The notes beneath the pieces were generated by a model. That model searched no databases and was not told where the DNA came from. It was given only the letters and a program-made list of their open reading frames with translations. Of a DNA stretch of 64,000 bases, positions 4,693-45,943 are shown one piece after another. The first letter of the stretch is position 1. The number at the start of each line of letters is the position of its first letter. This stretch comes from a virus: the IMG/VR virus record IMGVR_UViG_3300050014_000899; one strand, written 5' to 3'. Made by a program: the position numbers and the translations under genes.

Positions 4693-4731
4693 ATATTTTT
4701 TTATTCAAGATATTTGTTGTACATTTACGAT

Positions 4732-11551: not shown

Positions 11552-11552
11552 A

Positions 11553-27410: not shown

Positions 27411-27420
27411 AATATATAGA
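27411..27420 (+). promoter_or_regulatory. putative phage (late-type) promoter for tRNA operon 1
   Basis: AATATATAGA, same ATATATA core seen before the HE genes and the prohead protease. Confidence 0.55.
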
Positions 27421-27443
27421 GAAACTAATAAATACTACAGCAA

Positions 27444-27548
27444 ATGACAAGGCGTGCAAATATGGATAATTTCGTGGATTGGGGCTTTAATAGAGCAGCC
27501 AATAAAGACGGAGGTTATGGATGCCCGCTAAGGTGGAGAGGTATTTAA
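27444..27548 (+). CDS. attenuator leader peptide of tRNA operon 1 (MTRRANMDNFVDWGFNRAANKDGGYGCPLRWRGI)
   Basis: 34-codon ORF between promoter and terminator; codons 3-24 match downstream anticodons; contains antiterminator GGATGCCCGCT (27519-27529). Confidence 0.8.
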   Translation: MTRRANMDNFVDWGFNRAANKDGGYGCPLRWRGI

Positions 27549-27575
27549 CGAGGTAGTTAAAAAAATCTTTATATT

Positions 27576-27608
27576 AAGCGGGATCCCAACAGGTCCCGCT
27601 TTTCTTTT
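27576..27608 (+). terminator. attenuator terminator upstream of tRNA operon 1
   Basis: AAGCGGGATC-CCAACA-GGTCCCGCTT followed by TTCTTTT. Confidence 0.9.
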
Positions 27609-27675
27609 GATTAAAATTATGGAGCTTAAGCTAATCTAGTGAAAGCACTAACTCATCTAAATTTCTCTACTTTAT

Positions 27676-27762
27676 GGTCTCAGGAGCTGCTAGGCGTGGC
27701 TGCCGGACTGTCACTCCGGAACAGGTAAAACTGACAGGTGGGTTCGAATCCCATTGAGACCG
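27676..27762 (+). tRNA. tRNA-Asp(GTC) with long variable arm
   Basis: GGTCTCA/TGAGACC acceptor, CCGGA-CTGTCAC-TCCGG, TTCGAAT T-loop. Confidence 0.85.
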
Positions 27763-27817
27763 CAACAAATATGCTCGGTAAAGCCTCTTATGATAAATAA
27801 CGTAACTGAGTACTTAT

Positions 27818-27894
27818 AGGGGTGTAGTTCAAGTGGTAGAATAGTGGTCTCCAAAACCAAAGGTTTGCGGGTTCGAGTCCTGCCACCCCTGCCA
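27818..27894 (+). tRNA. tRNA-Trp(CCA)
   Basis: AGGGGTG/CACCCCT acceptor, loop CTCCAAA, encoded CCA. Confidence 0.93.
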
Positions 27895-27984
27895 GAGATT
27901 TAGTATATGTGAAGACTTGAAGGACTTTGGCCCTTGATTTTAGAGCTTACATACTTTCATGCCAATGAAGGAACTAAATCACAA

Positions 27985-28058
27985 GGGGAATTAGCTCAGT
28001 TGGCTAGAGCACCTGCCCTGCAAGCAGGGGGTCACGAGTTCGACTCTCGTATTCTCCA
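27985..28058 (+). tRNA. tRNA-Ala(TGC), C33 variant
   Basis: G3-U70; CCTGC-CCTGCAA-GCAGG. Confidence 0.92.
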
Positions 28059-28189
28059 CTCGAGGATGTTCGGCATCATTCAACTCATTCCAAGAAGGTG
28101 TCAAGTAACGAATGTCTAAGTTAAGTCACAGCGGCCGTACCTATAACGGTCAAAATTTCATGCTCGGGCTTTTTTCCGGTTCGTTACTT
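28059..28189 (+). ncRNA. structured RNA containing a 23S rRNA helix 69 mimic
   Basis: GCGGCCGTACCTATAACGGTC at 28131-28151. Confidence 0.65.
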
Positions 28190-28192
28190 TAT

Positions 28193-28265
28193 GCGCTTTT
28201 AGCTCAGATGGTAGAGTAGGTGCCTCTTAAGCATCGGGTCCAGGGTTCGATCCCCTGAAGGCGCA
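28193..28265 (+). tRNA. tRNA-Lys(CTT)
   Basis: Cloverleaf with loop CTCTTAA. Confidence 0.92.
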
Positions 28266-28350
28266 CAAATGAAAGTGAACGGCGCGTCTACCGTTTAATG
28301 ATTACCGACAAGTTGAAAAAGTCTTGGGCTATAACAGCTTTCATTTATTT

Positions 28351-28426
28351 GGGACGTAGGTCAAACGGTTAAGATGTCGGCCTGTCACGCCGTACGGAGC
28401 GGGTTCAACTCCCGTACGTCCCGCCA
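28351..28426 (+). tRNA. tRNA-Asp(GTC)
   Basis: Cloverleaf, loop CTGTCAC, G73-CCA. Confidence 0.93.
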
Positions 28427-28528
28427 ATATGTAGTAAGAAAAGGGTTACATCGGTTATGATTGGTTCGATTCCAATTTTACCCTGCGAAAGCTCGGGTGA
28501 ATTAAAGCTCTTTTCAATTTTCTCATAT
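28427..28528 (+). ncRNA. Y-RNA-like (YrlA-like) RNA with T-arm and closed acceptor cargo
   Basis: ATATG-TAGTAA..TTACATCG..ATTGG-TTCGATT-CCAAT..AATTTTCT-CATAT. Confidence 0.72.
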
Positions 28529-28534
28529 CGTTTT

Positions 28535-28608
28535 GTCGATAATAGTTTAATGGTAGAATATCCAGCGGTAAAACGAGGGAAGGAACCGGTTCGATTCCGG
28601 CTAAGACT
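28535..28608 (+). ncRNA. degenerate tRNA-like element
   Basis: D-arm and T-arm present; anticodon arm and acceptor are aberrant. Confidence 0.45.
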
Positions 28609-28611
28609 CCT

Positions 28612-28761
28612 GGGAGTATAGCTCAATGGTAGAGCAATTGGCTGTCTACAGACAGAAGTGTCTGAATAAAAACTTTAGGTGAAGTCTTATGAAGTTAAAG
28701 GAATCAAAATCCTCTTCATCTGCTAACCAATAGGTTCTGGGTTCGAGTCCCTGTGCCCCCG
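28612..28761 (+). tRNA. tRNA-Asn(GTT) interrupted by a 78-nt anticodon insertion
   Basis: ATTGG-CTGT[28646-28723]TAA-CCAAT; G73. Confidence 0.75.
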
Positions 28762-28828
28762 CTAATAACTAATAAGCAAAAAGATAAAAGTTCGAAACTT
28801 TTTCTGAATATATAGTAAAAGATATATT

Positions 28829-29548
28829 ATGAAGAGTTGCGAAAATTGTCAAAAAGAGCATGAAGGAACTTATGGTTCTGGAAGATTTTGTTCAGCTGAA
28901 TGTGCTAGGGGATTTAGCACAAAAGAAAAACGTTCTTTGATAAATGAAAAAATAAGCAAAAAAATGAAAGGATCGGGACATTCTGATATAAAAATAATTT
29001 GTCCTATATGCCAAACAGAATTTGAAGTTTCATGGAATAAAAGAAATCAAAAATTTTGTTCACGAAATTGTTCAATGAGATTTTCTAATTCTCAACCAGA
29101 AAATATAAAAAATTTATCTTTAAAAAGAATCAACAAAATACTTAAAGGACAAGTAAATGATTATGGTATAAAGATGATATATAAATTCAAAAATAAGGAT
29201 ATTAAATGCGATTCAAAAATAGAATTTGCTTGTTTAAATTTTTTTGAAACTAAAGAGGCATCAGAGATGGAAAGATGCAATCTAATTATTGAATATAAGG
29301 ATAAAGATAAAATAAGAAGATTTAATCCGGATTTTAAAATAAAAATAGATAATAATATTTATATTGTTGAAGTTAAGAGTTATATGAGTATTAAATCTAT
29401 AAATGAAAAATGGCGAAATTATAATGAATTATCTAAATTGAAAAAAGAAGCTTTAATAAATTTTTGTCAATTAAATAACTATATTCCCTTTTGGTTTACA
29501 AAAGATTTAAACAGAAATTTTTATAATAATGTTTCGGTCGTACTATAA
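28829..29548 (+). CDS. putative homing endonuclease (Zn fingers plus PD-(D/E)xK)
   Basis: CENC..GSGRFCS, FNPDF..IVEVKS; ATATATA promoter. Confidence 0.8.
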   Translation: MKSCENCQKEHEGTYGSGRFCSAECARGFSTKEKRSLINEKISKKMKGSGHSDIKIICPICQTEFEVSWNKRNQKFCSRNCSMRFSNSQPENIKNLSLKRINKILKGQVNDYGIKMIYKFKNKDIKCDSKIEFACLNFFETKEASEMERCNLIIEYKDKDKIRRFNPDFKIKIDNNIYIVEVKSYMSIKSINEKWRNYNELSKLKKEALINFCQLNNYIPFWFTKDLNRNFYNNVSVVL

Positions 29549-29606
29549 TTGGTCAGACTGCACTCTGTTAAAGTGAATAATGTAGGTTCGAATCCTACCC
29601 GAAACG
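29531..29606 (+). tRNA. tRNA-Asn(GTT), atypical D-arm
   Basis: GTTTCGG/CCGAAAC acceptor, CACT-CTGTTAA-AGTG, T-arm. Confidence 0.75.
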
Positions 29607-29680
29607 CCGCGCCGCCCAAAGGACGGATGCCCTGGTCACACAAAACCGTATTTGTGCAACTCACCTACGGGGTGAGTATT

Positions 29681-29917
29681 GCCCTGGTAGTTTAACTGGA
29701 GGAGGAACATGAAGTTATTAAATGCTCTCAACACTCAGCGCTGAGATGTTGGTCAAAGAGACATCAGACCTGATAAAAAAGTTAGGGAGGTGCAAAGGCA
29801 TTTATTAAAGAATGGTGGAATAGCTTGCCATCCAAATTTAATTTATGCTGGTAATAGACATTCCGAGAATTCTGGATTCGTTCAGAGGTGTGGGTTCGAT
29901 TCCCGCTGGGGGTTCCA
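29681..29917 (+). ncRNA. tRNA-like RNA with a ~165-nt structured insert replacing the anticodon loop
   Basis: GCCCTGG plus D-arm at the 5' end; TGAA/TTCA stem; T-arm plus TGGGGGT-T-CCA at the 3' end. Confidence 0.6.
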
Positions 29918-29925
29918 ATTTTAAA

Positions 29926-29998
29926 GTTCTTTTAGCTCAGTTGGAAGAGCGCTTCCGTGACATGGAAGAGGCCGTAGATTCGAGTTCTACAAGGAACA
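29926..29998 (+). tRNA. tRNA-Val(GAC)
   Basis: CTTCC-GTGACAT-GGAAG. Confidence 0.9.
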
Positions 29999-30003
29999 CA
30001 AAC

Positions 30004-30079
30004 AGCGACATAGCTCAGTGTGAGAGCGCTCCCGTTCATAGGGAGAGGTGCGGAGGTTCAATTCCTTCTGTCGCTACCA
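30004..30079 (+). tRNA. Met-scaffold tRNA with loop GTTCATA (formal anticodon TCA, or off-centre CAT)
   Basis: AGCGACA/TGTCGCT-A-CCA; CTCCC-GTTCATA-GGGAG. Confidence 0.65.
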
Positions 30080-30080
30080 A

Positions 30081-30182
30081 GGGAGTATAAGCTGTTAGAT
30101 GCATAAACAGCCATACGGGAGAACGGCGAATTTGGTGCTAAGACCATCATCCGCTGAGAGGGTTCGAATCCCTTTACTTCCA
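30081..30182 (+). ncRNA. tRNA-like RNA with expanded D and anticodon domains
   Basis: GGGAGTA/TACTTCC acceptor and a canonical T-arm. Confidence 0.55.
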
Positions 30183-30247
30183 CGAAATTCACTGTGAAGG
30201 TGAAATTTAATTTTCTTTCCAAAAGTTCGAACATAAGAAAGAAGATT

Positions 30248-30322
30248 TGCGATATAGAGCAGTGTTAGCTCGCTCCCGGGAAAAGGGAGAGGTCGGAGGT
30301 TCAATTCCTTCTGTCGCGACCA
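30248..30322 (+). tRNA. tRNA with GAA (Phe) anticodon on the same scaffold as 30004
   Basis: CTCCC-GGGAAAA-GGGAG; T-arm identical to 30004; CCA end. Confidence 0.65.
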
Positions 30323-30396
30323 GTTCCTTTAGCTCAGCTGGAAGTAGCGCCACCCCTACATGGTGGATGTCATAGGTTCGATCCCTATAAGGAACA
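30323..30396 (+). tRNA. tRNA-Val(TAC), C33 variant
   Basis: CCACC-CCTACAT-GGTGG. Confidence 0.85.
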
Positions 30397-30397
30397 C

Positions 30398-30537
30398 AAA
30401 CTGTAGTAAAACAGCGAGTTACTTCGTATTCCAAACGACTAGTCTAGGTGCAAATCCTGGGTCCCCTGCCAAAATTACTTAGGGGATTAGTGTAATAGAT
30501 AGCACAGTAAAAACACTCAAGTTAAATTTCTCAGTTT
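30398..30537 (+). ncRNA. Y-RNA-like RNA containing a circularly permuted tRNA-Trp
   Basis: Scaffold encloses the 3' half (TTCCAAA..T-arm..GTCCCCT-G-CCA) before the 5' half (AGGGGAT plus D-arm). Confidence 0.78.
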
Positions 30538-30539
30538 AC

Positions 30540-30641
30540 GGGAATGAAACTATTAGGGGGCGGAACCCTTTTATCCACAGTAGGAATAGTGATAAGGAAG
30601 CAGGCCGATCACCTGAGTGAGTTCGATTCTCACCATTTCCA
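30540..30641 (+). ncRNA. tRNA-like RNA (acceptor and T-arm, novel interior)
   Basis: GGGAATG/CATTTCC; GTGAG-TTCGATT-CTCAC. Confidence 0.55.
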
Positions 30642-30699
30642 CTAGTAGACCGTTATAATTTCATAGGACTCACATTGGAGAGTACAGCGTAGAAATTAA

Positions 30700-30773
30700 T
30701 GGGACACATGTTCCAAGGCAAGGCGAATGAGTTTTGCAAACTTGTTGGGAGGTTTCGATTACCTTTGTCTCCA
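30700..30773 (+). tRNA. atypical tRNA-Ala(TGC)
   Basis: G3-U70, loop TTTGCAA, U1/C72 mismatch, unusual D-arm. Confidence 0.7.
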
Positions 30774-30778
30774 CACAC

Positions 30779-30874
30779 TGCGGAAGAGTGAAACGGATAG
30801 AGATTTTAATTAATTTCGCTATCATCCAGGGCTCATAACCCTCGGGATATTGGGTTCGACTCCCATTTCCGCTA
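30779..30874 (+). tRNA. initiator-type tRNA-Met(CAT) with extended D-arm
   Basis: 1:72 mismatch, GGG/CCC anticodon stem, ~20 extra nt in the D-loop. Confidence 0.8.
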
Positions 30875-30880
30875 CTAAAA

Positions 30881-30984
30881 ACAAATGGCAGCACAACACC
30901 TAAAGGGACGCTTTTAAGGTAGTGGCCGAAGCATCGAAAATCAGAAATGACCTGCCGATGTAAAAAACGAATCCGGGCGTTTGT
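30881..30984 (+). ncRNA. unknown structured RNA
   Basis: ACAAATG/CGTTTGT closure, GCATCG/CGATGT helix, possible GGCAG/CTGCC pseudoknot. Confidence 0.45.
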
Positions 30985-30991
30985 TTTATAT

Positions 30992-31078
30992 GCCGTCGTG
31001 CCAGAGTGGCCAATCGGGGAGGGCTCATATCCCTTGGCTTTTATAGCCCCATAGGTTCGAATCCTATCGACGGTACCA
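30992..31078 (+). tRNA. class II (Leu-like body) tRNA with CAT anticodon
   Basis: GCCGTCG/CGACGGT-A-CCA, loop CTCATAT, variable arm GGCT-TTTAT-AGCC. Confidence 0.8.
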
Positions 31079-31094
31079 AATTTAATGTATAAAA

Positions 31095-31601
31095 ATGTAT
31101 TATACAATTTACAAAACTACGAATAAATTTAATGGCAAGTTTTATATCGGAAAGCATCAGACTCAGAAATTAAATGATAATTATTTAGGGTCTGGAAAAG
31201 CTTTGGAACTGGCTATTAAGAAATACGGTAAAGAGAATTTTCAAAAAAGAATTATTTTTGTTTTTGATAATGAAATTTTAATGAATCAAAAAGAAAAAGA
31301 AATTGTTACAGAGAATTTTATATCCAGCAATACAAATTATAATTGTGGGGTTGGGGGAGAAGGAGGAGCTCAATTCTTAAATAAATCTCACTCTGAAAAA
31401 ACTAAAAAATTGCTTGCTGAAAAAGCTAAATTAATAAAGCCCTCTAAAGAAACTAGAGATAAAATATCAGAGGGTAATAGAAAAAGAACATTATCTAAAG
31501 AAACAAGAAATAAACTCTCTCAAAAATCTTTCGAGAGATGGAAAAAATTGCGGGTTGGAGAAAATAGTCATCTCATTGGGCTCATAACCCAAGGTTGCTA
31601 G
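31095..31601 (+). CDS. GIY-YIG homing endonuclease (SegB-like)
   Basis: YTIYKTTN..FYIGKH, YLGSG, NUMOD3. Confidence 0.92.
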   Translation: MYYTIYKTTNKFNGKFYIGKHQTQKLNDNYLGSGKALELAIKKYGKENFQKRIIFVFDNEILMNQKEKEIVTENFISSNTNYNCGVGGEGGAQFLNKSHSEKTKKLLAEKAKLIKPSKETRDKISEGNRKRTLSKETRNKLSQKSFERWKKLRVGENSHLIGLITQGC

Positions 31602-31624
31602 GGCGGTACTAGTGCCCGCTACCA
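31549..31624 (+). tRNA. initiator-type tRNA-Met(CAT)
   Basis: TTGGG-CTCATAA-CCCAA, 1:72 mismatch, divergent T-loop, CCA. Confidence 0.8.
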
Positions 31625-31629
31625 ATTAA

Positions 31630-31741
31630 GCTGTAGTAACTGTAAGAATTACTTCGTTGAGTTCGATTCTCAATTTTCCCGCCAGATTTTAAAGGGAAAA
31701 TCGCCACAAAGGGTGGCATTATTCTTCTAATTTTTCTCAGC
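31630..31741 (+). ncRNA. Y-RNA-like (YrlA-like) RNA with T-arm, acceptor and D-like cargo
   Basis: GCTG-TAGTAA..TTACTTCG-TTGAG-TTCGATT-CTCAA-TTTTCCC..GGGAAAA..ATTTTTCT-CAGC. Confidence 0.75.
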
Positions 31742-31797
31742 GAAAATACATGCCGGATGACCCCCGTTGTATCACGGTGCCGGCTCCAATAAGGTCA

Positions 31798-31870
31798 GAT
31801 CTCGTAGCTCAGTTGGTAGAGCACATCCCTTTTAAGGATGGGGTCCTGGGTTCGAGCCCCAGCGGGATCA
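31798..31870 (+). tRNA. tRNA-Lys(TTT)
   Basis: Canonical cloverleaf, loop CTTTTAA. Confidence 0.95.
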
Positions 31871-31871
31871 C

Positions 31872-31977
31872 AATCGTAGTAATGGAAAGAGTTACTTCGT
31901 GCTAATGGTTAGCAAAATCCTGTTAAGATTACTTCGCGGTTCAATTCCGCCTGTTACCTCTTCCGATTTTCTCGATT
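31872..31977 (+). ncRNA. Y-RNA-like RNA carrying D, anticodon (GTT) and T arms
   Basis: AATCG-TAGTAA..TTACTTCG, D-arm, AATC-CTGTTAA-GATT, T-arm..GATTTTCT-CGATT. Confidence 0.72.
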
Positions 31978-31980
31978 ATG

Positions 31981-32054
31981 GGAGCTTAGCTCAGTTGGTT
32001 CAGAGCATCTGCCTTACAAGCAGAGGGTCGAGGGTTCGAATCCCCCAGTTCCCA
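31981..32054 (+). tRNA. tRNA-Val(TAC)
   Basis: Canonical, loop CTTACAA. Confidence 0.95.
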
Positions 32055-32143
32055 CATAACGTATAAAATAATATACGTTAACTAAGAAAAAGGGACTTAA
32101 TGTATAATATTTTATCCGTTATGACCCGATAATATCCGATAAT

Positions 32144-32216
32144 GGTCCGGTAGCTCAATGGATAGAGCACCTGCCTTCTAAGCAGGTGGTTGAGAGTTCG
32201 AGTCTCTCCCGGATCA
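32144..32216 (+). tRNA. tRNA-Arg(TCT)
   Basis: Canonical, loop CTTCTAA. Confidence 0.95.
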
Positions 32217-32223
32217 CTAATTT

Positions 32224-32298
32224 GGTCTCATAGTACAACGGATAGTGCGCGAGTTTCCTAAACTTGAAATCCGGGTTCGATTCCCAGTGAGATCACCA
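32224..32298 (+). tRNA. tRNA-Arg(CCT)
   Basis: Loop TTCCTAA, CCA end. Confidence 0.92.
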
Positions 32299-32579
32299 AA
32301 TAATTTATAAACATGACTCATACTCTTAAGCAAATTGTTAAGGGTAATACTGCTCGCTTTTCATATGCATGCGAAGGGAAGCTCTATTACACTATTGAAG
32401 TAGAAGAATCAGTATATCAAGTAGAATTGGACAGTACCGCCGATGAATGGAGGGCAACATATATGACCCCAACTTTTCCTGCCATCACTCTTATGAGATG
32501 GATCAGAAAAGGTATGGAAAATGAAAAATTTATTCAGATAAAGTAGACAACTTTAGGATATTTTTCGTATATTTGTCCC

Positions 32580-33011
32580 ATGGTAATTCACGAAATATTG
32601 AAGGAACATGGGATTTTTAGTAATGACATAAAAGTCAAAATTAAAAATGGCCAGATTAAATTAAATGGAGAAGTTGTTACGGATCCTTTAATGGATTTGG
32701 ATATTGAATTCGTGAAGAAGGAGGACCGGCCTACCAAAGAAACCCCTGCATTTGAAGATGCTGGAAATTTTCTTTTCAGAGCAATTAGTAAAGACAAAGA
32801 ATGTTTTGACTTATGTACAGCTATGGGGGTTGATGGATTGGGTATTCATCCAGAATTTTGGCCAGATTTGAATTTTACCAACAAACTAGTTGAAAAATTT
32901 AGAAAGGTTTATGTCTTAAAGATTTCTAAAAAAGAATGGATCATACTCCAGAAAAAAGAAGTTGAAATTGAAACGGAAGAATTTTTAATATTGAAGAAAA
33001 ATGATTGTTAA
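32580..33011 (+). CDS. hypothetical protein with N-terminal S4-like RNA-binding motif
   Basis: LKEHGIFS..IKNGQIKLNGEVVTDP. Confidence 0.55.
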   Translation: MVIHEILKEHGIFSNDIKVKIKNGQIKLNGEVVTDPLMDLDIEFVKKEDRPTKETPAFEDAGNFLFRAISKDKECFDLCTAMGVDGLGIHPEFWPDLNFTNKLVEKFRKVYVLKISKKEWIILQKKEVEIETEEFLILKKNDC

Positions 33012-33230
33012 AAAAAGAACTGATAAGATTGAAGTTGACCTGACAGGTCCGCATGGAAATGCTTATGCTCTTTTAGGATTAGCAAGTGATATTTGCAAGA
33101 ATTTAAATCGTCTTGCAGGAAAAGAATTATATGACTTCAAAGAAATTGAAAAAGATATGAAGAGTTCTGATTATGAACATCTTTTGGAAGTTTTGGAAGA
33201 ACACTTTGGTAACTTTATAATATTATACAG

Positions 33231-33638
33231 ATGAGATTTGCAAATGATCCAGCGGAGCCAACAACTCCCACGAACCCGAAATTATCTTCGATAGCTTATA
33301 CATTGTCAAAATTGACTGTATTGGAAGCTAAAGAATTAGCTGATATACTTGAAAACGATTTTGGTATCAAGAAAGCTAAAACAGAGTTTAAACCTGCAGG
33401 ATATGAACCTGTTCCTGAAGTGGAACAAACTGAATTCAATGTTTACCTCAAAGAAATTGGCAATCAAAAATTGCAGGTTATAAAAAAGGTCCATGAAGTA
33501 ATGGGATTGGGTCTTAAAGAAGCCAAAGCATTGGTTGATTCTACCCCCTGTCTTTTAAAAGAAAAGATTTTAAAAGCTGAAGTAACAACCATAAAAGCCG
33601 AATTGGAAAATGTCGGAGCAGTAGTGGAAGTGAGATGA
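33231..33638 (+). CDS. rplL: ribosomal protein L7/L12
   Basis: LTVLEAKELADILE, EQTEFNV, KLQVIK..GLGLKEAKALVD. Confidence 0.93.
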   Translation: MRFANDPAEPTTPTNPKLSSIAYTLSKLTVLEAKELADILENDFGIKKAKTEFKPAGYEPVPEVEQTEFNVYLKEIGNQKLQVIKKVHEVMGLGLKEAKALVDSTPCLLKEKILKAEVTTIKAELENVGAVVEVR

Positions 33639-34313
33639 AATTAAAGAACCTCATATTAGCATTAAAAGATCAAGGTCCGCTTAAAAGAGCTTTTCGAAAC
33701 TTCTTTATAACTGGAAATGCATGGGGTTTATTTTCCATAAACTCTCACATAAGGCAGGATACTCAAAAGCCAAAGGTGACTTATAATACTCAAGAAACAG
33801 CTGCTAAATCAGCTATCAGTTTGGGTAAGAAAAATGGGGTTCACTTTAGCTATTACAAATGTGCTTACTGTGATGGTTATCATATCGGTAAGAATAGAGA
33901 CAATAAAACAAATGAAAAATAGAGCAAAAGGTTTTTATTGGGTTCAATATGCAAATTTATCTTGGGTAGTTTGCGAATGGGATGGTGTCCAATGGCATCA
34001 CCAAGGGGCAAGTTATCCGGATGAAAGTTTTAAACAGATTCATGAGATAAGAATTGAGCCTCCAAAACCCAAAGATGTTAGAAATTCCGATGGTATATGG
34101 ACTCCAGAATGTTTAATTTTTTAAAATGAGAATAATAATCACAGCTGAAGAAGCAATCGATAAAGGAATCTGGGAAGATTTATGCGACATGGTCGGATAC
34201 AGTTATTATGCAGTTAACGAAGGTATGGACCCTGATACAGAAATTTCTTTAACAGAGGATCAAGCAAGACAGCTGGGAGTAATACCTGCAAAAAATAGTA
34301 TTTCCTGGGACTA

Positions 34314-34948
34314 ATGAAAGCATATCACACAATACAGAAATATACCGAGGATCACTATGGAAAGTTTGTATGGGCTTTCGATAAGGTAGATGGATCTAAT
34401 TTCAGGTAGAGTGGGATAGAAAACTTTCAAAGAAAAGCCAGTTTACATTTGGATTCAAAAAATTCGGGACAAGAACCGAAATGATAATGAACAACAGAAA
34501 TCCATTTATTGAAGCTGTTACTTTGTTTGAAATGGAATATGCTCCAAAATTTGACCAGATTTTTAAAGACGCAAAAGAGCTAAGAGGAGTTCCGATAATT
34601 ACCTTATTTGGAGAGTTTTATGGTCCAGGTAGCTTTGCAGGTATGCACGATTGGAACGCTACCCATAGTTTAACATTTTTCGATGCGGCAATATATAAGA
34701 AGGGATACCTTCCTCCATCAGATTTTCAAAATCTATTTGGAGAACTCCCCATACAAAAACTTATTTGGAAAGGAATTTTCAATGAGGAATTTGTAAAAAG
34801 AGTAGAAGCCAATGAATTCGGACTTTCCGAAGGAATAGTTTACAAGGGCGTTGAAGACGGAGATGTCTTTATGGGCAAAATCAAAACTCTTCAATGGCTC
34901 GAAAGTATAAGAAATAAGTACGGTATCAAAAAAATGCTAGAGTACTAA
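34314..34948 (+). pseudogene. Rnl2-like RNA ligase with a 1-nt frameshift near 34406
   Basis: Motif I DKVDGSNFR then TAG; the other frame continues with FGEFYG, FFD, EGIVYK and KIK motifs. Confidence 0.75.
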
Positions 34949-35135
34949 TGGAAGATTTCAAAAAGAAGCGAAAAGATCTTCGCGATCGAAAAAGAGAAGC
35001 AATGAACGAGGAATATAAATCCGCCAAAGAAAGAAAAGGGGTTGTTAACACATTTAAAAGAGAATCCAGATCCATTAAGAGATCTGAGAAAAATGAAATA
35101 AAGAAAGTTCTTCGGAACGATTTTGGAATTTAAAC

Positions 35136-35211
35136 GCGCCGGTATCACGCCTCGCTACGAACGAGGAGAAGTGTAATTGGACACATGAGGGTTCGAATCC
35201 CTTTCGGCGTT
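35136..35211 (+). tRNA. non-canonical tRNA-Arg(ACG) with D-loop relocated 3' of the anticodon arm
   Basis: 7-nt linker, CCTCG-CTACGAA-CGAGG, then AGAAGTGTAATTGGACACAT and a T-arm. Confidence 0.75.
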
Positions 35212-35215
35212 CTAA

Positions 35216-35375
35216 TGGGTAAAGTGTTATACGGTCTGAAGCCCGGGTTTGGGAAATGAATCATCAGAGTACCTCAGGTCTATAAAATAACACAAGAGGG
35301 GAATCTTTTCAGATGATCAATCCTTCAAAGACGCTGAATTTATCCAGGTGGGAAGGGTTCGCCCGATTCTCACCA
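35216..35375 (+). ncRNA. unknown structured RNA
   Basis: TGGGTAAA/TTTATCCA closure, GTGTTAT/ATAACAC pseudoknot, terminal hairpin ending in CCA. Confidence 0.5.
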
Positions 35376-35379
35376 AATT

Positions 35380-35451
35380 GCGGAGGTAGTATAACGGTTA
35401 GTATAGGGCCTTGCCAAGGCTCAGATGGGTTTTCGATTAACCTTCTCCGCA
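35380..35451 (+). tRNA. tRNA-Gly(GCC)
   Basis: GGGCC-TTGCCAA-GGCTC; GCGGAG acceptor. Confidence 0.88.
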
Positions 35452-35503
35452 CAAAGTAGCAAAATTGGTAGAGCGCATGTGAATATATATAGAAAATATT
35501 CGC

Positions 35504-36310
35504 ATGCTACCAAGAAATAAAAAAAATTGTGAAAAATGCAATAAAGAAATAAGTTTGTCTAATTTTAATTTGCATTATTCTTCATGTAAAGGAAATATAG
35601 AAGAAACAAAGATAAGAGTAAAAGAAGAATGGAAATTGGTCAACGGAAAATACAAATGTCCATATTGTAATAAAGAGTATTCGAAGAATGGAATTTCTAC
35701 ACATATTATAAGAAATCATACCGAAAAAGGAAAAGGGCAAAATCCCAATATTGGTTTTTTAAAGGAAACCCAAATTATTTGGAATAAGGGGTTATCAAAG
35801 GAAACAAATAAAAGTCTTGAAAATCTTTCAAAAACATTATTAAAAAAATATAAATCTGGAGAATTAAAATCCGGATTTAAAAATAAAAAACATAATAAAA
35901 TATCATGTGAAAAAATGTCTAAAAGTGCTATTCTAGCATTTCAAGAAGGAAGACATTCTGGATGGGTTTCAAGAAAAATACAAAGTTATCCTGAGATATA
36001 TTTTGAAAAGGTTTTAAAAAGCAAAAAGTTATTTGAAGAATGTATCCCTGAATATTTTATTAAACATAAAAACAATTCTAATTATTTTTTGGATTTTTAT
36101 TTTCCAAATAAAAGGATTAATTTAGAAATTGATGGCTCTCAACATGAATTGGAAGATCGAAAAATATCTGATAATCAAAGAGATAATTTTTTATCAGAAC
36201 AAAATATATTTGTTTTTAGAATAAAATGGAGAAACCCAAAATCATTAGATGGTAAAAAATATTTGGAGAATAAAATAAAAGAATTTATTGAATTATACAA
36301 GCGGAAGTAG
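35504..36310 (+). CDS. putative homing endonuclease (Zn finger plus DUF559/Vsr-like)
   Basis: CPYC..H..H, SYPE, YFLDF..LEIDGSQH..RD. Confidence 0.85.
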   Translation: MLPRNKKNCEKCNKEISLSNFNLHYSSCKGNIEETKIRVKEEWKLVNGKYKCPYCNKEYSKNGISTHIIRNHTEKGKGQNPNIGFLKETQIIWNKGLSKETNKSLENLSKTLLKKYKSGELKSGFKNKKHNKISCEKMSKSAILAFQEGRHSGWVSRKIQSYPEIYFEKVLKSKKLFEECIPEYFIKHKNNSNYFLDFYFPNKRINLEIDGSQHELEDRKISDNQRDNFLSEQNIFVFRIKWRNPKSLDGKKYLENKIKEFIELYKRK

Positions 36311-36373
36311 CTCAGTTGGTAGAGCACCGTCCTTCCACGTCGGGGGTCGCGAGTTCGAACCTCGTCTTCCGCT
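36301..36373 (+). tRNA. tRNA-Gly(TCC)
   Basis: GCGGAAG/CTTCCGC-T, loop CTTCCAC. Confidence 0.93.
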
Positions 36374-36380
36374 CAATTTT

Positions 36381-36452
36381 GCCTCTATGGTGTAATGGAT
36401 AACATGGGTGACTTCGGATCATCTGTTACGGGTTCGAATCCTGTTAGGGGCA
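36381..36452 (+). tRNA. tRNA-Arg(TCG)
   Basis: GGTGA-CTTCGGA-TCATC. Confidence 0.9.
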
Positions 36453-37464
36453 CAACTTTTTTAAACTAAAATAATGAATTATACAAATTATATTTTAAGC
36501 GGAAACTCTATCAATATCAATTCTCTCATCTCCAAAAAAAGATACTTAAAACCAATAACTATTACAATTGCTATTCCAGTAGCTATAGTAGGATTTCTAG
36601 CATTTTCGGGAATATTACCAGCAACCTATATAATAGATCGTGTTAAAGAAGGAGAAATTAAATATCTTAAAGTTATAAGAAAATATAAAAGAAACAAAGA
36701 GTTTCAAGCTTTTTTAGAAACCATTTCAGATGATAAAGAAGAAATGAAAAGAATCAAAAAAATGTATCATTAATCATGAAAAAATTATTCGATGGTCATT
36801 AGGTAAGAAAGTTACCTAAAATAAGACCATTATGAGAAGAAGACATTATTTGAAAACGACTCAAATACTTGAGCACACCACAAATCGTAGAGAATTTAAA
36901 ATTCTTACCACCGTTGATCAAGATCCATATCCTGAAGAGTATGGGTATTACCAAAAGCACAAATGGGGATTCAGAGGATGCAGAAAGTCCAGATTAATCT
37001 GGAAACATCAAGTAAGAATGTATCGTACTTGGAAGCATAATAGAAAAACCCAGTATAAATATAATAAAAACGATGGATATATCCACAATAACGAAGGAAC
37101 AATTTGATTTAGCTTATAATAAGTTTCAACCAAATGCTTGGGTCAAATTTGGATTTAAGTACTTTTCTAATAGTACTTTAAAAGAAAATTTCAAAATAAA
37201 GAAAACTGTAACTTGGATTCTCGGTGTTCTTTTTGGAATTGGTTTTTTAGCAACTGTAATTGGATTACCGCACAATGTAATTGCAGTTCCTGTTCTAATA
37301 TATTCAGGAATTATTGTTATTTTAGCTATTATTATGGGGGGATCCGCTCTAATGAATAATCTGAGAATTAAAAAAATTCAGAAAGAATTAGGAGTAAACA
37401 TTTGGCAATATGAAGCTTTAGTAAATATGTTTTATCCAACCCCTATCAACCCACTTCAAAATTA

Positions 37465-38052
37465 ATGAATAAATTGAGTCCTTTTCTTCAATACAAGGAC
37501 ATCCTTGAGAAATATTTGTCTCCTAAAACCATTTTTAAATTAAAGGAGGCTTGGAATGAACCCAGAAGAAGGTATCATAATGAAGATCACTTATATCAGA
37601 TTTTAAAAGATCTCGAAAAAAGTAAATCAAAAGTATCTTCAGTTCAATGGGAATCTTTAGTAATAGCCGCTTTCTTTCACGATGCTATTTATGTTCCGGG
37701 GAATTCCAATAACGAGGATCAGTCCATTAAAGTTTTCTTAGAGTCTTTTTTAGGAAAAAGATTTGATATGGTTAAAGCTATTAAAGAAATGATCAAAGCA
37801 ACTCAATTTAGAGTGGTTCCAGCGGATAAACTAGTTAAGATTTTTTGGGAAGCAGATAATGCAGGATTCCAGGGACCATTTGAAAGTTTTTTAGAAACCG
37901 AGAAGAAGATTAGATTAGAGTTTGGACATGTTTCTTTGCATACTTATAAGAAAGGAAGACTAAAGTTTCTCAATTCCTGTTTAGGATTAATGGGGCCAAA
38001 AGCAGACGAAAACGTCTCAAAACTAATCGAGTACATAGAAAAAAATTACTAA
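37465..38052 (+). CDS. HD-superfamily metal-dependent phosphohydrolase
   Basis: RRYHNEDH, AAFFHDAIY..NEDQS, EAD. Confidence 0.85.
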   Translation: MNKLSPFLQYKDILEKYLSPKTIFKLKEAWNEPRRRYHNEDHLYQILKDLEKSKSKVSSVQWESLVIAAFFHDAIYVPGNSNNEDQSIKVFLESFLGKRFDMVKAIKEMIKATQFRVVPADKLVKIFWEADNAGFQGPFESFLETEKKIRLEFGHVSLHTYKKGRLKFLNSCLGLMGPKADENVSKLIEYIEKNY

Positions 38053-38589
38053 TTTTAACGTTTTTTCTTCAAAAATATTTTTTTTCTAAGTAAAATAATT
38101 GTACATTTACTATGAAATTAAAAATAAGAGATATGAGAACCACAGGCGTTATCGAATTCGAAGGATTTAAATTCAAAAATACAGAATTTCAATTTAAGAA
38201 CAAGAAAGAGATGAACAGCTTTTTTAATGAGGTTCTTATTGATAGTCCTCAGAGATTCATTAATACTTTGGATCGTTGGAATTTGGAAAATATGCACATT
38301 GCGTTTTCACAATTTATGCTGATGAAAGTTATTGCTTTTTCAGGTCTTGGAATGGGATTAGTATCAATACTTGCAAAGCTTCCGTCAATTGTTGGAATTG
38401 GTTTCGTAGTAATGGCAGCAGTTAATTATATTGCAAGCAAAAAAGCCGAAAAAAGACTTGATAACATCAACTACAGCAGAGGAGATTATGAAATGATGGC
38501 TGAAGGACTTGATGAAGTTCGTGAAGATTTAATAAAAGAAAAAAATTCAAAGTAATACAAAACCTAAGCATTTTTACGTATATAAGATA

Positions 38590-38600
38590 GATATATAAAG
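38590..38600 (+). promoter_or_regulatory. putative phage (late-type) promoter for tRNA operon 2
   Basis: GATATATAAAG. Confidence 0.55.
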
Positions 38601-38621
38601 AAACAACAAAAAGTTAAAACA

Positions 38622-38699
38622 ATGAAAAGGCAGTCCATACATACGATTAGTATTACCTCATCACACGATAAGGGCGGCCTTTTTATGACTAGACTTTAG
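38622..38699 (+). CDS. attenuator leader peptide of tRNA operon 2 (MKRQSIHTISITSSHDKGGLFMTRL)
   Basis: Codons 5-15 are all Ser/Ile/His/Thr and match the operon; alternative 1:2, 2:3 and 3:4 pairings. Confidence 0.87.
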   Translation: MKRQSIHTISITSSHDKGGLFMTRL

Positions 38700-38724
38700 T
38701 ACTAAGATATTAAATGATTTATTC

Positions 38725-38757
38725 AAAGGAAGGCTCCAATCAGTCTTCCTTTTTTTT
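38725..38757 (+). terminator. attenuator terminator upstream of tRNA operon 2
   Basis: AAAGGAAGGCT-CCAATC-AGTCTTCCTTT followed by T-tract. Confidence 0.9.
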
Positions 38758-38762
38758 GTTTT

Positions 38763-38848
38763 GGAGAGTAGCATTCGATGGTGGATAACAGGTCTCGAAA
38801 ACCTGGCCGGCGGTTCAAATCCCAAGGGTTCGACTCCTTTACCCTCCG
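38763..38848 (+). tRNA. tRNA-Ser(CGA)
   Basis: Loop CTCGAAA, long variable arm, G73. Confidence 0.85.
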
Positions 38849-38864
38849 CTAGAAAATAAAATAT

Positions 38865-38954
38865 GGATGGGTACCCAAATTGGTTAAGGGGGCGGTCTTG
38901 AAAACCGTTAGGTCGTGTAAACACGGCGCGTGGGTTCGAACCCCACCTCATCCG
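38865..38954 (+). tRNA. tRNA-Ser(TGA)
   Basis: Loop CTTGAAA, long variable arm. Confidence 0.93.
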
Positions 38955-38957
38955 CAA

Positions 38958-39027
38958 GGGGCGAAACCAACTTCGCAAGTTGGATCTGGATTTAGCTACC
39001 AGATAAGCATATGTGTGATGCTGTCCC
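38958..39027 (+). ncRNA. four-way cloverleaf RNA without tRNA consensus motifs
   Basis: GGGGCG/TGTCCC closing three hairpins. Confidence 0.5.
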
Positions 39028-39033
39028 GGTTAT

Positions 39034-39110
39034 GGTGGTATTAGTGTTAGTGGTAAGCACGAAAGTCTGTGGAACTTTTAGGATGGGTTCGAATCCCATA
39101 TAACACCCCA
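39034..39110 (+). tRNA. tRNA-His(GTG), encoded G-1
   Basis: Loop CTGTGGA, C73, CCA. Confidence 0.92.
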
Positions 39111-39114
39111 TTAT

Positions 39115-39194
39115 GGTAGACGTAGCTTAATTGGTTAAAGGGCCAGATTGTGGATCTGATGCGATTGAGGGTTCGAATCCCTTCGTCTACCCCA
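39115..39194 (+). tRNA. tRNA-His(GTG), second copy, encoded G-1
   Basis: Loop TTGTGGA, C73, CCA. Confidence 0.9.
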
Positions 39195-39195
39195 C

Positions 39196-39268
39196 GCCTC
39201 TATAGTATAGTTGGTAATTATAGCTGATTCGTAATCAGCAGACTGGGATTCGAATTCCCGTAGAGGCT
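39196..39268 (+). tRNA. tRNA-Thr(CGT)
   Basis: GCTGA-TTCGTAA-TCAGC. Confidence 0.9.
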
Positions 39269-39275
39269 CAATAAT

Positions 39276-39349
39276 GCACCCTTAGCTCAGCTGGTAGAGC
39301 ACTTGCTTGGTAAGCAAGAGGTTCCCGGATTCGATCTCCGGAGGGTGCT
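39276..39349 (+). tRNA. tRNA-Thr(GGT)
   Basis: CTTGC-TTGGTAA-GCAAG. Confidence 0.92.
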
Positions 39350-39430
39350 CAAAAGCATACGTGTATGCGACAATAGTGAAGAGTGGTAATACACCCCGCC
39401 GTTAACTTGAGGAGGTCAGGCACTATTTTT

Positions 39431-39515
39431 GGAGGGTTGACCGAGAGGTAAGGTATCGCTCTGGAAAGGCGAAGTCAGGGTTAAACTTGGGTGGGATCGT
39501 TACCCGCATCCTCCG
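39431..39515 (+). tRNA. tRNA-Ser(GGA)
   Basis: Loop CTGGAAA, long variable arm, G73. Confidence 0.87.
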
Positions 39516-39522
39516 CAAAAAT

Positions 39523-39595
39523 ACTGGTGTGGCGCAATGGTAAGCGCAGGACCCTTATAAGGTCAAGGTTGGGGGTTCAAGTCCCTTCACCAGTA
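39523..39595 (+). tRNA. tRNA-Ile(TAT)
   Basis: Loop CTTATAA, A73. Confidence 0.88.
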
Positions 39596-39602
39596 CAAAT
39601 TT

Positions 39603-39679
39603 CGGCCTGTATACCCTCTGTCTGATAAACAGTTGAAAGGTTAGCTGGTTGCATAGTGGTTCGACTCCACTCAGGCCGA
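39603..39679 (+). tRNA. non-canonical tRNA-Ile(GAT) with relocated D-loop
   Basis: CGGCCTG/CAGGCCG, 7-nt linker, CTGT-CTGATAA-ACAG; same architecture as 35136. Confidence 0.75.
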
Positions 39680-39685
39680 CAAAAT

Positions 39686-39758
39686 GGGCGTATCATATAG
39701 TTGGTTAGTATACGTGCCTGATAAGCACGACACGGAGGTTCGAGGCTTCCTATGCCCA
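39686..39758 (+). tRNA. tRNA-Ile(GAT)
   Basis: CGTGC-CTGATAA-GCACG. Confidence 0.9.
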
Positions 39759-39833
39759 CAAATTCTAGAGGGTTAAGAAATGGGGATAGCAATCTAGCCT
39801 GCATTTTTACGGATATATATAATAAATAATATT

Positions 39834-40580
39834 ATGTATAAGTGTAATCATTGCGATAAAGAATTTGAATTAAAACAACAAAAAACTAATCATGAAAGAT
39901 GGCATGCCAATCCTAAACACAATGAGATTAAAAAAGAATATTGTTGTTCGATATGTGGAAAAACATTTACAAATTTTGGATGGAAACAAATTCATGAAAA
40001 ATATTGTGATGGATCAGGATTAACTAAAAAAGAAAAAATTCTTAAAAACAGAGAAAATAATAAAGGCAAAACTTTTGATGAAATTTTAGTTCAAAAAGGA
40101 ACTTATGAAAAGTTTTGTCAAAATGTATCTTTTGGAATGAAAGAAGCTTTTAAAGAAGGCAAATTTACCGGATCCCCATCTACAGAAGAAGGCAAAAAAA
40201 GAAAAAATGAAAAATTAAGACAGAGTACATTAAAAAGATACAAGGAGGGGTGGGATTCAAAATGTGGAAGAGCTCCTAAATATCATTACGAAAGCAAGAT
40301 AGCAGGAAAAATAACTGTTGATGGGTCATGGGAATTAAATGTAGCCAAATATTTAGATAACAATAATTTTAGATGGATTAGAAATACAAAAAGATTTGAT
40401 TATGTTAATTTAGAAGGAAAACAATCAACATATAAACCGGATTTTTATATTTTTAATTGGAGTAGTTATTTAGAAATAAAAGGATTTGAAACAAAACTGG
40501 ATAAATGTAAATGGGAGCAATTTAAAGAACCCCTAATAATATGGAAAAGAAATGATTTAAAAGAATTAAAAATAATTTAA
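39834..40580 (+). CDS. putative homing endonuclease (C2H2 fingers plus PD-(D/E)xK)
   Basis: CNHC..HERWH, GSWE, YKPDF..LEIKG. Confidence 0.82.
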   Translation: MYKCNHCDKEFELKQQKTNHERWHANPKHNEIKKEYCCSICGKTFTNFGWKQIHEKYCDGSGLTKKEKILKNRENNKGKTFDEILVQKGTYEKFCQNVSFGMKEAFKEGKFTGSPSTEEGKKRKNEKLRQSTLKRYKEGWDSKCGRAPKYHYESKIAGKITVDGSWELNVAKYLDNNNFRWIRNTKRFDYVNLEGKQSTYKPDFYIFNWSSYLEIKGFETKLDKCKWEQFKEPLIIWKRNDLKELKII

Positions 40581-40582
40581 AA

Positions 40583-40669
40583 GGAGAGTAAACCGGAAAG
40601 GTTTGCCGGAACCGCCTGCTAAGCGTGTTGAGCGTTAATTCGCTTGGTTTTCGAATATCCTGCTCTCCG
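40583..40669 (+). tRNA. tRNA-Ser(GCT)
   Basis: Loop CTGCTAA, long variable arm, G73. Confidence 0.82.
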
Positions 40670-40675
40670 CTCATG

Positions 40676-40724
40676 AAAAAGACCCAATATAATTTTTTTA
40701 TATGGGTCTTTTTTTGTACATTTA
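40676..40724 (+). terminator. terminator ending tRNA operon 2, overlapping an early promoter
   Basis: AAAAAGACCCA..TGGGTCTTTTTTT followed by TACATTTA. Confidence 0.8.
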
Positions 40725-40744
40725 CAGAGTTAAAAAGTATATGT

Positions 40745-41128
40745 ATGAACTTTGAAAGACATCAGGATCCTTTAACCTCAATGAATATTGGGATTACTAC
40801 TTGGGATAAACTGCAGCAAGGTCAAGTCCTAAAAACTAAAAGAAGCGTAAAGCTTACCGAAATCCCTGGGGGAGCATGGAAAATAAAAGCTGATGGTAGT
40901 GTGTTGGATAATTCTATTGGTAAAGATATGTTCTGCCATCTTATTCGTGTAAACCACGTTAGGGTAAAAGACGGAAAAACAAAAATTTTACAAATTGTAT
41001 TTGCTGAATATTTATGGTTAGACAGTATAGCTAAAGATACTAAACAATTTACAGCTACAAAAACTTTAATTGGAAATATTGATCAGATCAAAAGTAGATT
41101 TGAAATTATTCAAAGAGTAAAAATATGA
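40745..41128 (+). CDS. hypothetical protein, FxR..DP..xIG family
   Basis: MNFERHQDPLTSMNIG. Confidence 0.65.
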   Translation: MNFERHQDPLTSMNIGITTWDKLQQGQVLKTKRSVKLTEIPGGAWKIKADGSVLDNSIGKDMFCHLIRVNHVRVKDGKTKILQIVFAEYLWLDSIAKDTKQFTATKTLIGNIDQIKSRFEIIQRVKI

Positions 41129-41910
41129 AAAATCATTTTGTCCGAGGGGGAAATGTCATTAAGAAATTAGGTATAGGAAGATCCATTCTTGATGAACTCA
41201 TGGAACATAAGGTTGCTAGACCTATGAATGATCCTCGTGAAAAGCTGGAGGGAGATGAAAAATACAGTCAGAATATTGCTGTTTGGATAAATCCTAGTAA
41301 TCAAACCTGTTTTAATGCTATGTGGTGTGACTATCAGAATCTGGAGGATTGGATGAACGGAAAAGGACCGATGGTTAAAGGGGATACAGATGAGGAAAAG
41401 AAAAAATATTGGGATTATGCTGTAGCTGAAGCAGAAGACACGGAACATATGATGTGGTCCATTTTATATCATTGGAAATGGTTTGACCAGTTTACAACAG
41501 ATTTTGATCCTCATAAACATGCAGCTTCTTTTGGAATAAGTAACGTTATAAAAAATCCTCTTAAGCTTAACAAGAAAGACCCCTCGGAAACTATAAAAGC
41601 TATGTATGCTCCGTATGTGGATGAAATGGCCAGAGATATGGAATATAGGGACTGGGGTAACATTAGAAGAGAAGCTGAAAAAGAATGGTATGGGATTAAA
41701 AGAACCCTTTATTGTTTAGGAATTGGTTATATGGGAGCTTGCAATACCCCAGAGGAGATTGAAAATCTTAATTGGATTGAAGGTATTGTTCTATCTAAAG
41801 CATATTATAATGGATTGATTAAATATTCCCCCCATAAATCTCTTCCTGATTTTGCATGGCTTTCCCAAAAAGAGCAAGATAAATACAAGAAAGATAAGAT
41901 GGATTTATGA
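41125..41910 (+). CDS. hypothetical protein, FxR..xIG family
   Basis: MKNHFVRGGNVIKKLGIG. Confidence 0.65.
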   Translation: MKNHFVRGGNVIKKLGIGRSILDELMEHKVARPMNDPREKLEGDEKYSQNIAVWINPSNQTCFNAMWCDYQNLEDWMNGKGPMVKGDTDEEKKKYWDYAVAEAEDTEHMMWSILYHWKWFDQFTTDFDPHKHAASFGISNVIKNPLKLNKKDPSETIKAMYAPYVDEMARDMEYRDWGNIRREAEKEWYGIKRTLYCLGIGYMGACNTPEEIENLNWIEGIVLSKAYYNGLIKYSPHKSLPDFAWLSQKEQDKYKKDKMDL

Positions 41911-42329
41911 AAAACCAACTCCTATGGAATGAATCGCTTGAAACTGGTATCGTTGAATTAGATATTCAGCATAGAAACCTTTTCAACATATTTAAGATTC
42001 TACGCGATGCTATTGAAAACAAAAAATCTTCATTAGTTATTAAATACATTATTGAAGAGGTAGAACGATACGGAGAGTATCACATAAATGCCGAAGAAGA
42101 GATTCTAAGAAAATATCAGGTATTAAGTGAATCCCATTATAGGGAACACGAAAGCTTCAAAAAAATCGTTCATGATTTTAAAGAAAGATATATCACAACC
42201 CCAGATAATATTTTAGCTGAGGAAATTTCTAAATATCTCTATAGCTGGGTAACGAATCATATCATGAAAATTGATATGGAAGACATTCGGCTTCTGAATG
42301 AAGAATTTAAAAAAGCTGGAAAGCTTTAA
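41907..42329 (+). CDS. bacteriohemerythrin
   Basis: W..SLETGIVELDIQH, HxxxEE, HxxEH, WVTNHIMKID. Confidence 0.9.
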   Translation: MKNQLLWNESLETGIVELDIQHRNLFNIFKILRDAIENKKSSLVIKYIIEEVERYGEYHINAEEEILRKYQVLSESHYREHESFKKIVHDFKERYITTPDNILAEEISKYLYSWVTNHIMKIDMEDIRLLNEEFKKAGKL

Positions 42330-45907: not shown

Positions 45908-45943
45908 TTTTTTTACTAAGGATTTTTGTTGTACATTTGCTTT

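Follow-up and report, generated by a model that had tools for sequence, protein, structure and literature searches.

The ilv and thr attenuators sense codons for more than one amino acid in a single leader, and the pheST attenuator of E. coli uses a cognate-codon leader peptide to control a translation component, phenylalanyl-tRNA synthetase, and not a biosynthetic pathway. We analyzed a 64,000-nt stretch of virus DNA (IMG/VR virus record IMGVR_UViG_3300050014_000899; referred to as the window, one strand, numbered from its first letter) in which a 25-codon leader open reading frame (ORF) and a terminator stand directly in front of tRNA genes for Ser, His, Thr and Ile. The locus has the make-up of the ilvGMEDA, thr, trp and his attenuators, i.e., a short ORF, dense regulatory codons and mutually exclusive I:II, II:III and III:IV hairpins, with III:IV as the intrinsic terminator; like the ilv and thr leaders, it is multivalent. 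In the published attenuator scheme, which includes the geometry of the codon block before segment II, slow reading of the regulatory codons results in read-through (PMC1183508). We conclude that the phage element is likely to be a ribosome-mediated (leader-peptide) transcription attenuator that would sense decoding speed and gate transcription of phage tRNA genes. The Ser/His/Thr/Ile tRNAs are probably made only when ribosomes read the block codons slowly.

The phage element differs from enterobacterial attenuators in several respects. It controls tRNAs and not biosynthetic enzymes, so that the sensed quantity and the product belong to the same molecule class. Its codon block samples four amino acids (ten in a sister leader in front of another tRNA array of the window) and touches nearly each anticodon class once or twice, in place of one codon used over and over. 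Segment 1 is the start-codon region and not the regulatory codons, and the element is virus-encoded and has no Shine-Dalgarno sequence. As in pheST, a component of the translation apparatus lies under a cognate-codon leader, but pheST is cellular, senses one amino acid and has a synthetase as its target, and tRNA genes do not lie behind it. T-box riboswitches are similar in that the choice between terminator and antiterminator is set by the state of tRNA and the targets are related to translation. However, a T-box recognizes uncharged tRNA itself, by means of its specifier codon and T-box sequence, and needs no translation, whereas the phage element is an ORF with 11-13 block codons. A cmscan (Rfam) search of 27000-41500 with E up to 1 gave no leader family and no T-box; its matches were to the tRNA clan and, weakly, to Plastid-ycf2 (two, both on the minus strand where tRNA genes overlap). 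With the T4 tRNA region, the locus shares the setting of a large T4-like phage with clustered tRNA genes and homing-endonuclease-like ORFs between them. Passages in two reports present the role of phage tRNA genes as long debated (codon compensation, making up for degraded host tRNAs, or escape from anticodon nucleases) and propose that phage tRNAs replace depleted or cleaved host tRNAs (PMC10264068, PMC11555353). Full-text literature searches found no account of leader-peptide attenuation for phage or cellular tRNA genes, which agrees with the statement in a first-pass annotation of the window, made from the sequence alone, that no description for phage tRNA arrays was known.

The same first-pass annotation had claimed a leader ORF at 38622-38699 with a particular series of codons at positions 5-15, a promoter-like ATATATA in front of it, a terminator behind it and two further pairings competing with that terminator. 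The 25-codon ORF and its codons 5-15 were re-read exactly. The 11 consecutive Ser/Ile/His/Thr (S/I/H/T) codons form the longest run of this kind across the six frames of the window, and the next longest run is 7. These four amino acids have a background frequency of 0.238 in the six-frame run count and account for 21% of codons in the phage ORFs. At this frequency, ~0.02 runs of such length are expected per window and ~2e-5 within the 150 nt upstream of the tRNA cluster. The block codons (ACA is not among them) touch eight of the cluster's nine anticodon classes; with the amino-acid sequence and phage codon usage taken as given, such coverage has p ~0.02. Chance or a tRNA remnant as the source of the leader ORF was rejected on the run-length and codon-class statistics. 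A leader lacking a Shine-Dalgarno sequence is normal for this phage, because a Shine-Dalgarno-like motif precedes only 4 of 60 window genes and is missing from the other 56.

The promoter-like ATATATA corresponds to ATATATAAA at 38591-38599, located 31 nt 5' of the leader ATG and kept upstream of the leader in all relatives. It belongs to a recurrent, strand-biased motif, ATATATA[AGT]A, with 14 copies on the + strand of the window and one on the - strand; 13 of the 14 + strand copies lie 18-32 nt 5' of an ORF start, those of both window leaders included. We take this motif to be similar to the T4 late promoter. No copy of it was found from the terminator through tRNA-Ile(GAT). A 17-nt motif at 38568-38584 has an exact second copy at 39801.

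The claimed terminator is present as a stem at 38725-38752 with 11 pairs and a 6-nt loop (hairpin energy -9.7 kcal/mol). Its T-tail runs up to 38762 and the first tRNA gene begins at 38763. It is the sole terminator-like match within 36000-42000. Both alternative pairings are present as well: the 1:2 duplex of the window was calculated at -19.9 kcal/mol (p ~0.0007) and the 2:3 duplex at -12.5 kcal/mol (p ~0.003), each against random windows of equal length. The minimum free energy fold, with a z-score of -3.9, contains the terminator and the 1:2 helix, in which the start-codon segment pairs with the segment that follows the block.

ARAGORN detected 26 tRNA genes between 27676 and 39759, of which the last nine are only for Ser, His, Thr and Ile; the anticodons of this cluster cover exactly the four amino acids of the codon block. 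The tRNAs listed in the first-pass annotation were largely recovered. Its Ser/His/Thr/Ile set is called by ARAGORN, with Ser(GCT) at relaxed thresholds. The exception is the second Ile(GAT) gene, at ~39601-39682 and flanked by Ile(TAT) and Ile(GAT): both ARAGORN and Infernal leave it uncalled, and its tRNA-like fold is non-canonical. Inside the tRNA operon proposed there, 39801-40580 turned out to be an insertion, a 248-aa ORF preceded by a promoter-like motif of its own.

Relatives were found by means of a 195-aa protein encoded at 37465-38052 (3 IMG/VR and 19 metagenome loci, 53-65% identity), and a 133-kb related contig was added by exact-word search. Two of six exact-pattern matches to the leader core (L007 and L011) were set aside as chance matches. 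Seven distinct leader sequences were compared. All related contigs that cover the site have the leader and the terminator, with Ser/His/Thr/Ile-set tRNAs next wherever the contig extends that far. Among the seven variants, the leader ORF has 23-26 codons with the ATG and the frame kept, and the block has 11-13 codons. The sole block indel is 3 nt in length and adds a Ser codon; the block substitutions (Q to H, H to S and T to I) all stay within S/I/H/T or extend it. The 13-codon block of L001 samples nine of nine anticodon classes (p ~0.01, given amino acids and phage codon usage).

Helix pairs were read sequence by sequence and not counted on an alignment, because MAFFT misregisters the terminator arms by one column. 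The pair formed by position 5 of segment 1 and its partner in segment 2 is A-U in the window but G-C in five variants, and in either state the covarying base of segment 2 is able to pair with segment 3. In the terminator, a G gained in one arm is matched by a C in the other. The three mutually exclusive helices are similar in stability across the seven variants (Table 1). Segment 2 begins 6 nt past the last block codon, and the stop codon follows ~6-24 nt past segment 2 and ahead of segment 3 in every variant.

A second leader of this kind, the sister leader (leader 1), precedes array 1 of the window. Its codons 3-24 (22 codons) encode only R, A, N, M, D, F, V, W, G and K, and this run is the longest in the window for the ten-amino-acid set, followed by one of 12. 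The ten amino acids are those of the tRNAs that follow, counting the gene at 28612-28762 as Asn(GTT). This tRNA gene (49 bits in Rfam) has its anticodon loop interrupted by an insert of ~78 nt, too short for a group I intron; removal of the insert would yield Asn(GTT), and the Asn genes that relatives have in this place are uninterrupted. The 2:3 duplex of leader 1 in the window was calculated at -17.1 kcal/mol (p < 0.0004). The 2:3 and 3:4 helices of leader 1 covary in three lineages (GGAU/AUCC, GGUU/AACC and GAAGUU/AACUUC), and substitutions in its block remain within the set, including a non-conservative D to V change.

A third leader with a terminator was found upstream of a Cys/Thr/Gln/Pro/Leu/Tyr/Glu array (array 3) in L062 (~2000-2275), and also in L061, L063 and L052. 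In its block, 16 of 18 codons are within the set of its array (Leu/Tyr/Pro/Thr/Gln/Glu/Cys). The third leader was checked in the related lineage only; the scaffold of the window itself begins inside array 3. We tentatively consider it possible that the phage group has three separately attenuated tRNA regulons (for ~7, 10 and 4 amino acids), each with its own decoding-speed probe. The virus would thereby gauge, for each codon class, whether translation still works in the infected cell. The failing set alone would then be switched on, and the tRNAs would be a self-tuning, on-demand supply and not constitutive cargo.

Table 1. Positions of the putative attenuator, the tRNA genes behind it and the sister element in the window, and calculated helix energies among leader variants
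Feature	Position	Strand	Description
Promoter-like region	38568-38599	+	17-nt motif 38568-38584 and ATATATAAA 38591-38599
Leader ORF	38622-38699	+	ATG to TAG, 25 codons; A-rich 5' region, no Shine-Dalgarno
Segment 1	38622-38637	+	start codon and codons 2-5; partner of segment 2
Putative sensing block	38634-38666	+	codons 5-15, 11 consecutive Ser/Ile/His/Thr codons
Segment 2 (antiterminator strand)	38672-38688	+	partner of segment 1 or of the terminator 5' arm
Segment 3 (terminator 5' arm)	38723-38735	+	partner of segment 2 or 4
Segment 4 and T-tail	38742-38762	+	terminator 3' arm 38742-38752, then T-rich tail
tRNA cluster	38763-39759	+	Ser(CGA), Ser(TGA), His(GTG) x2, Thr(CGT), Thr(GGT), Ser(GGA), Ile(TAT), Ile(GAT); tightly packed
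Inserted ORF unit	39801-40580	+	248-aa ORF 39834-40580, N-terminal C2H2 zinc finger, mobile-looking
tRNA-Ser(GCT)	40583-40670	+	divergent; ARAGORN at relaxed thresholds only
Closing terminator of the unit	40675-40714	+	hairpin -17.7 kcal/mol, then T-run
Sister attenuator (other sub-array)	27412-27608	+	motif 27412-27420, 34-codon ORF 27444-27548, block 27450-27515
Sister antiterminator strand	~27519-27529	+	
Sister terminator	27578-27599	+	T-run to 27608
1:2 region energy			-12.7 to -19.3 kcal/mol, seven variants
2:3 region energy			-12.4 to -18.7 kcal/mol, seven variants
3:4 terminator hairpin energy			-9.7 to -14.2 kcal/mol, seven variants

The attenuator architecture recognized in the first-pass annotation is supported by the codon run, the helices, the seven variants, their covariation and the two further leaders. 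At the level of sequence, all five parts of such a device are in place: an ORF, a block of cognate codons, a terminator, exclusive helices and a geometry suited to the ribosome. From the sequence features, their conservation and the helix energetics we infer that the leader is translated, that ribosomes could stall in it and that stalling would switch the RNA toward read-through. In the proposed course of events, transcription would start from the promoter-like motif of the phage late type and a ribosome would load on the A-rich leader. With fast decoding, the ribosome would reach the stop codon and cover segment 2, the 3:4 terminator would form, and the polymerase would stop just short of the tRNA cluster. 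Scarcity of just one sampled tRNA species would stall the ribosome inside the block and leave segment 2 free, because the block ends ~6-10 nt before segment 2. Stalled or queued ribosomes would then occupy segment 1, segments 2 and 3 could pair, and transcription would read through into the Ser/His/Thr/Ile tRNA genes. In the case of no translation, the 1:2 helix would sequester the start codon and the terminator would be free to form. The tRNA products are proposed to relieve the stall, which would make the circuit a direct negative feedback on tRNA supply.

We calculated the terminator probability with a ribosome footprint masked on the leader. Masking of early block codons in the window lowered it from ~0.98 to 0.02-0.3, and the same range was reached in L046 (from 0.97) and L009 (from 0.65). 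In L001 the terminator probability was ~0 with the ribosome on early codons and ~0.97 once it was past the block.

Other observations weigh against an attenuator, and four of them would fit another arrangement, in which the terminator behind a small conserved peptide gene is constitutively leaky and serves to insulate or to limit dosage, the tRNAs are made by fixed read-through or from an unrecognized promoter, and the codons sense nothing. In G004 (L029/L030, 32890-39321), array 1 is reduced to Phe, Lys, Gly, Asp, Trp, Gly, Gly and Arg tRNAs. Ala, Asn, Val and Met tRNAs are absent there, and leader 1 keeps, and even gains, such codons; the leaders thus do not strictly track their arrays. The lack of leader/array covariation in related phages, which the first-pass annotation named as evidence against its reading, is seen in part, for the sister leader of this one relative. 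Array 3 of the relatives is separated from the third leader by an ordinary 60-aa ORF and a second terminator. A conserved TTTGACAT containing a sigma-70 -35 hexamer lies between the terminator T-run and the first tRNA in arrays 2 and 3 of relatives (L001 7230-7237, L009, L041, L046 and L048; L052 ~1215); it is absent in the window. In L041, L043 and L048 the 3:4 hairpin wins at equilibrium, with a terminator probability of ~0.95 at any ribosome position, so that a switch there would have to be kinetic. The leaky terminator nevertheless leaves unexplained why each of three leaders has so extreme a run of the amino acids served by the array behind it, why block substitutions are confined to the set (the D to V change of leader 1 included), and why the strand that can pair with the terminator 5' arm has been conserved, with covariation. 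As to the promoter, TTTGACAT was set aside as the -35 element of a tRNA promoter because no usable -10 fits before the tRNA 5' end, and in the window the T-tail runs right up to the first tRNA, which leaves no room for a promoter. We regard the leaky terminator as unlikely.

The remaining difficulties concern the attenuator itself. Segment 1 is the initiation region and not the block, and stalls late in the block would need ribosome queuing or steric hindrance to prevent the 1:2 helix. The 1:2 helix of L009 is weak (-7.6 kcal/mol) and has an A.C mismatch. The block contains no TCG codon, yet Ser(CGA) is the first gene of the cluster. The inserted 248-aa ORF is preceded by its own copy of the 17-nt motif and a ATATATATA motif; as this ORF with a promoter-like motif of its own precedes Ser(GCT), that gene need not depend on the attenuator. 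The variants represent ~5 independent lineages, which makes the covariation statistics thin.

A translated leader could also sense decoding speed with an output other than termination, such as processing or stability of the precursor, a trans-acting small RNA (sRNA), or a functional peptide. The leader DNA is somewhat more conserved (0.71-0.81) than the neighboring gene (0.63-0.66), and the small inner hairpins of the block are conserved, both of which would be consistent with such an output. There is also a precedent in Sinorhizobium, where passages of two papers describe attenuator-derived sRNAs and leader peptides with functions in trans (PMC6614838, PMC7968998). On the other hand, the terminator/antiterminator geometry is complete and conserved and is enough for a switch in transcription, the peptide is free to vary outside the block, and the leader matches no Rfam family. 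We consider this reading slightly less probable still than the leaky terminator.

It is very improbable that the ORF, the codon run and the hairpins coincide by chance in AT-rich intergenic DNA: the amino-acid set was defined after viewing the locus and the lineages are few, but only ~0.02 runs this long are expected per window, a second, independent leader is just as extreme for its own set, as is a third in relatives, the element is kept across contigs whose flanking protein is only 53-65% identical, and the helix energies have p <= 0.003.

Besides the inserted ORF behind the Ser/His/Thr/Ile cluster, insertions elsewhere in the array were seen in relatives. In the window, ORFs lie within tRNA arrays at 28829-29548, 31095-31601, 35504-36310 and 39834-40580, and the insertion sites vary among relatives. 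A full ATATATA[AGT]A motif stands upstream of two of them and a close variant upstream of one; the ORF at 31095 has none. One has a GIY-YIG-like N-terminus and one the C2H2 zinc finger, and the interspersed ORFs look like homing endonucleases. The region of tRNA-Ser(GCT) is similar to unannotated stretches in Acinetobacter T4-like phages.

The fold at 39601-39682 is one of several tRNA-like sequences with acceptor and T-arm features that are uncalled by ARAGORN and Infernal at default settings; the others are at ~30402-30475, 31628-31685 and 31873-31960. Several of them have a GTAGTAA...GTTACTTCG motif in common, and they may be rewired or decayed tRNAs. At 30004-30079, the window encodes a Phe-like tRNA whose TCA anticodon would read TGA. 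In several relatives there are tRNAs with a CTA anticodon that would read TAG (G004 3442-3517, L050 10155-10227 and L057 5347-5419). These suppressor-like tRNAs suggest possible stop-codon read-through or recoding in the phage group.

The window is AT-rich (~34% GC), and its + strand carries nearly all long ORFs. The encoded proteins include a T4 gp21-type prohead protease. A TonB-dependent receptor-like gene (11472-13520), a nicotinate phosphoribosyltransferase (NAPRTase) gene (7734-8912) and a radical-SAM lysine-2,3-aminomutase-like gene (22652-23821) look like auxiliary metabolic or surface genes. The window sequence is present in peat metagenomes. Two related contigs of 60 and 133 kb were rated 15% and 33% complete, respectively, from which the genome is probably ~400 kb. 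A search of the phage reference collection found no close relative of the window, with matches at the tRNA level only, and an IMG/VR search with a 261-aa protein encoded downstream found no relatives. A TTGTACATTT(A/G)C motif was observed directly 5' of several ORF starts (4715-4731, 38095-38111 and 45927-45943) and is similar to TAnnTTTG, the -7 promoter element of Bacteroidota. This motif and the scarcity of Shine-Dalgarno sequences hint at a Bacteroidota-like host.

The leader would be a compact natural part for gauging the decoding speed of chosen codons, which is of interest for synthetic biology. If the attenuator reading is true, classical attenuation would extend to tRNA genes, to a virus, and to a multiplexed probe of 4-10 amino acids. 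The trigger could then be codon-usage mismatch, host shut-off or tRNA-cleaving defense nucleases; replacement of tRNAs cleaved by anticodon nucleases as the purpose of the circuit is speculation. The phage would treat tRNA supply as a regulated quantity, and the codons of each sensor would reveal which shortage it is there to detect.

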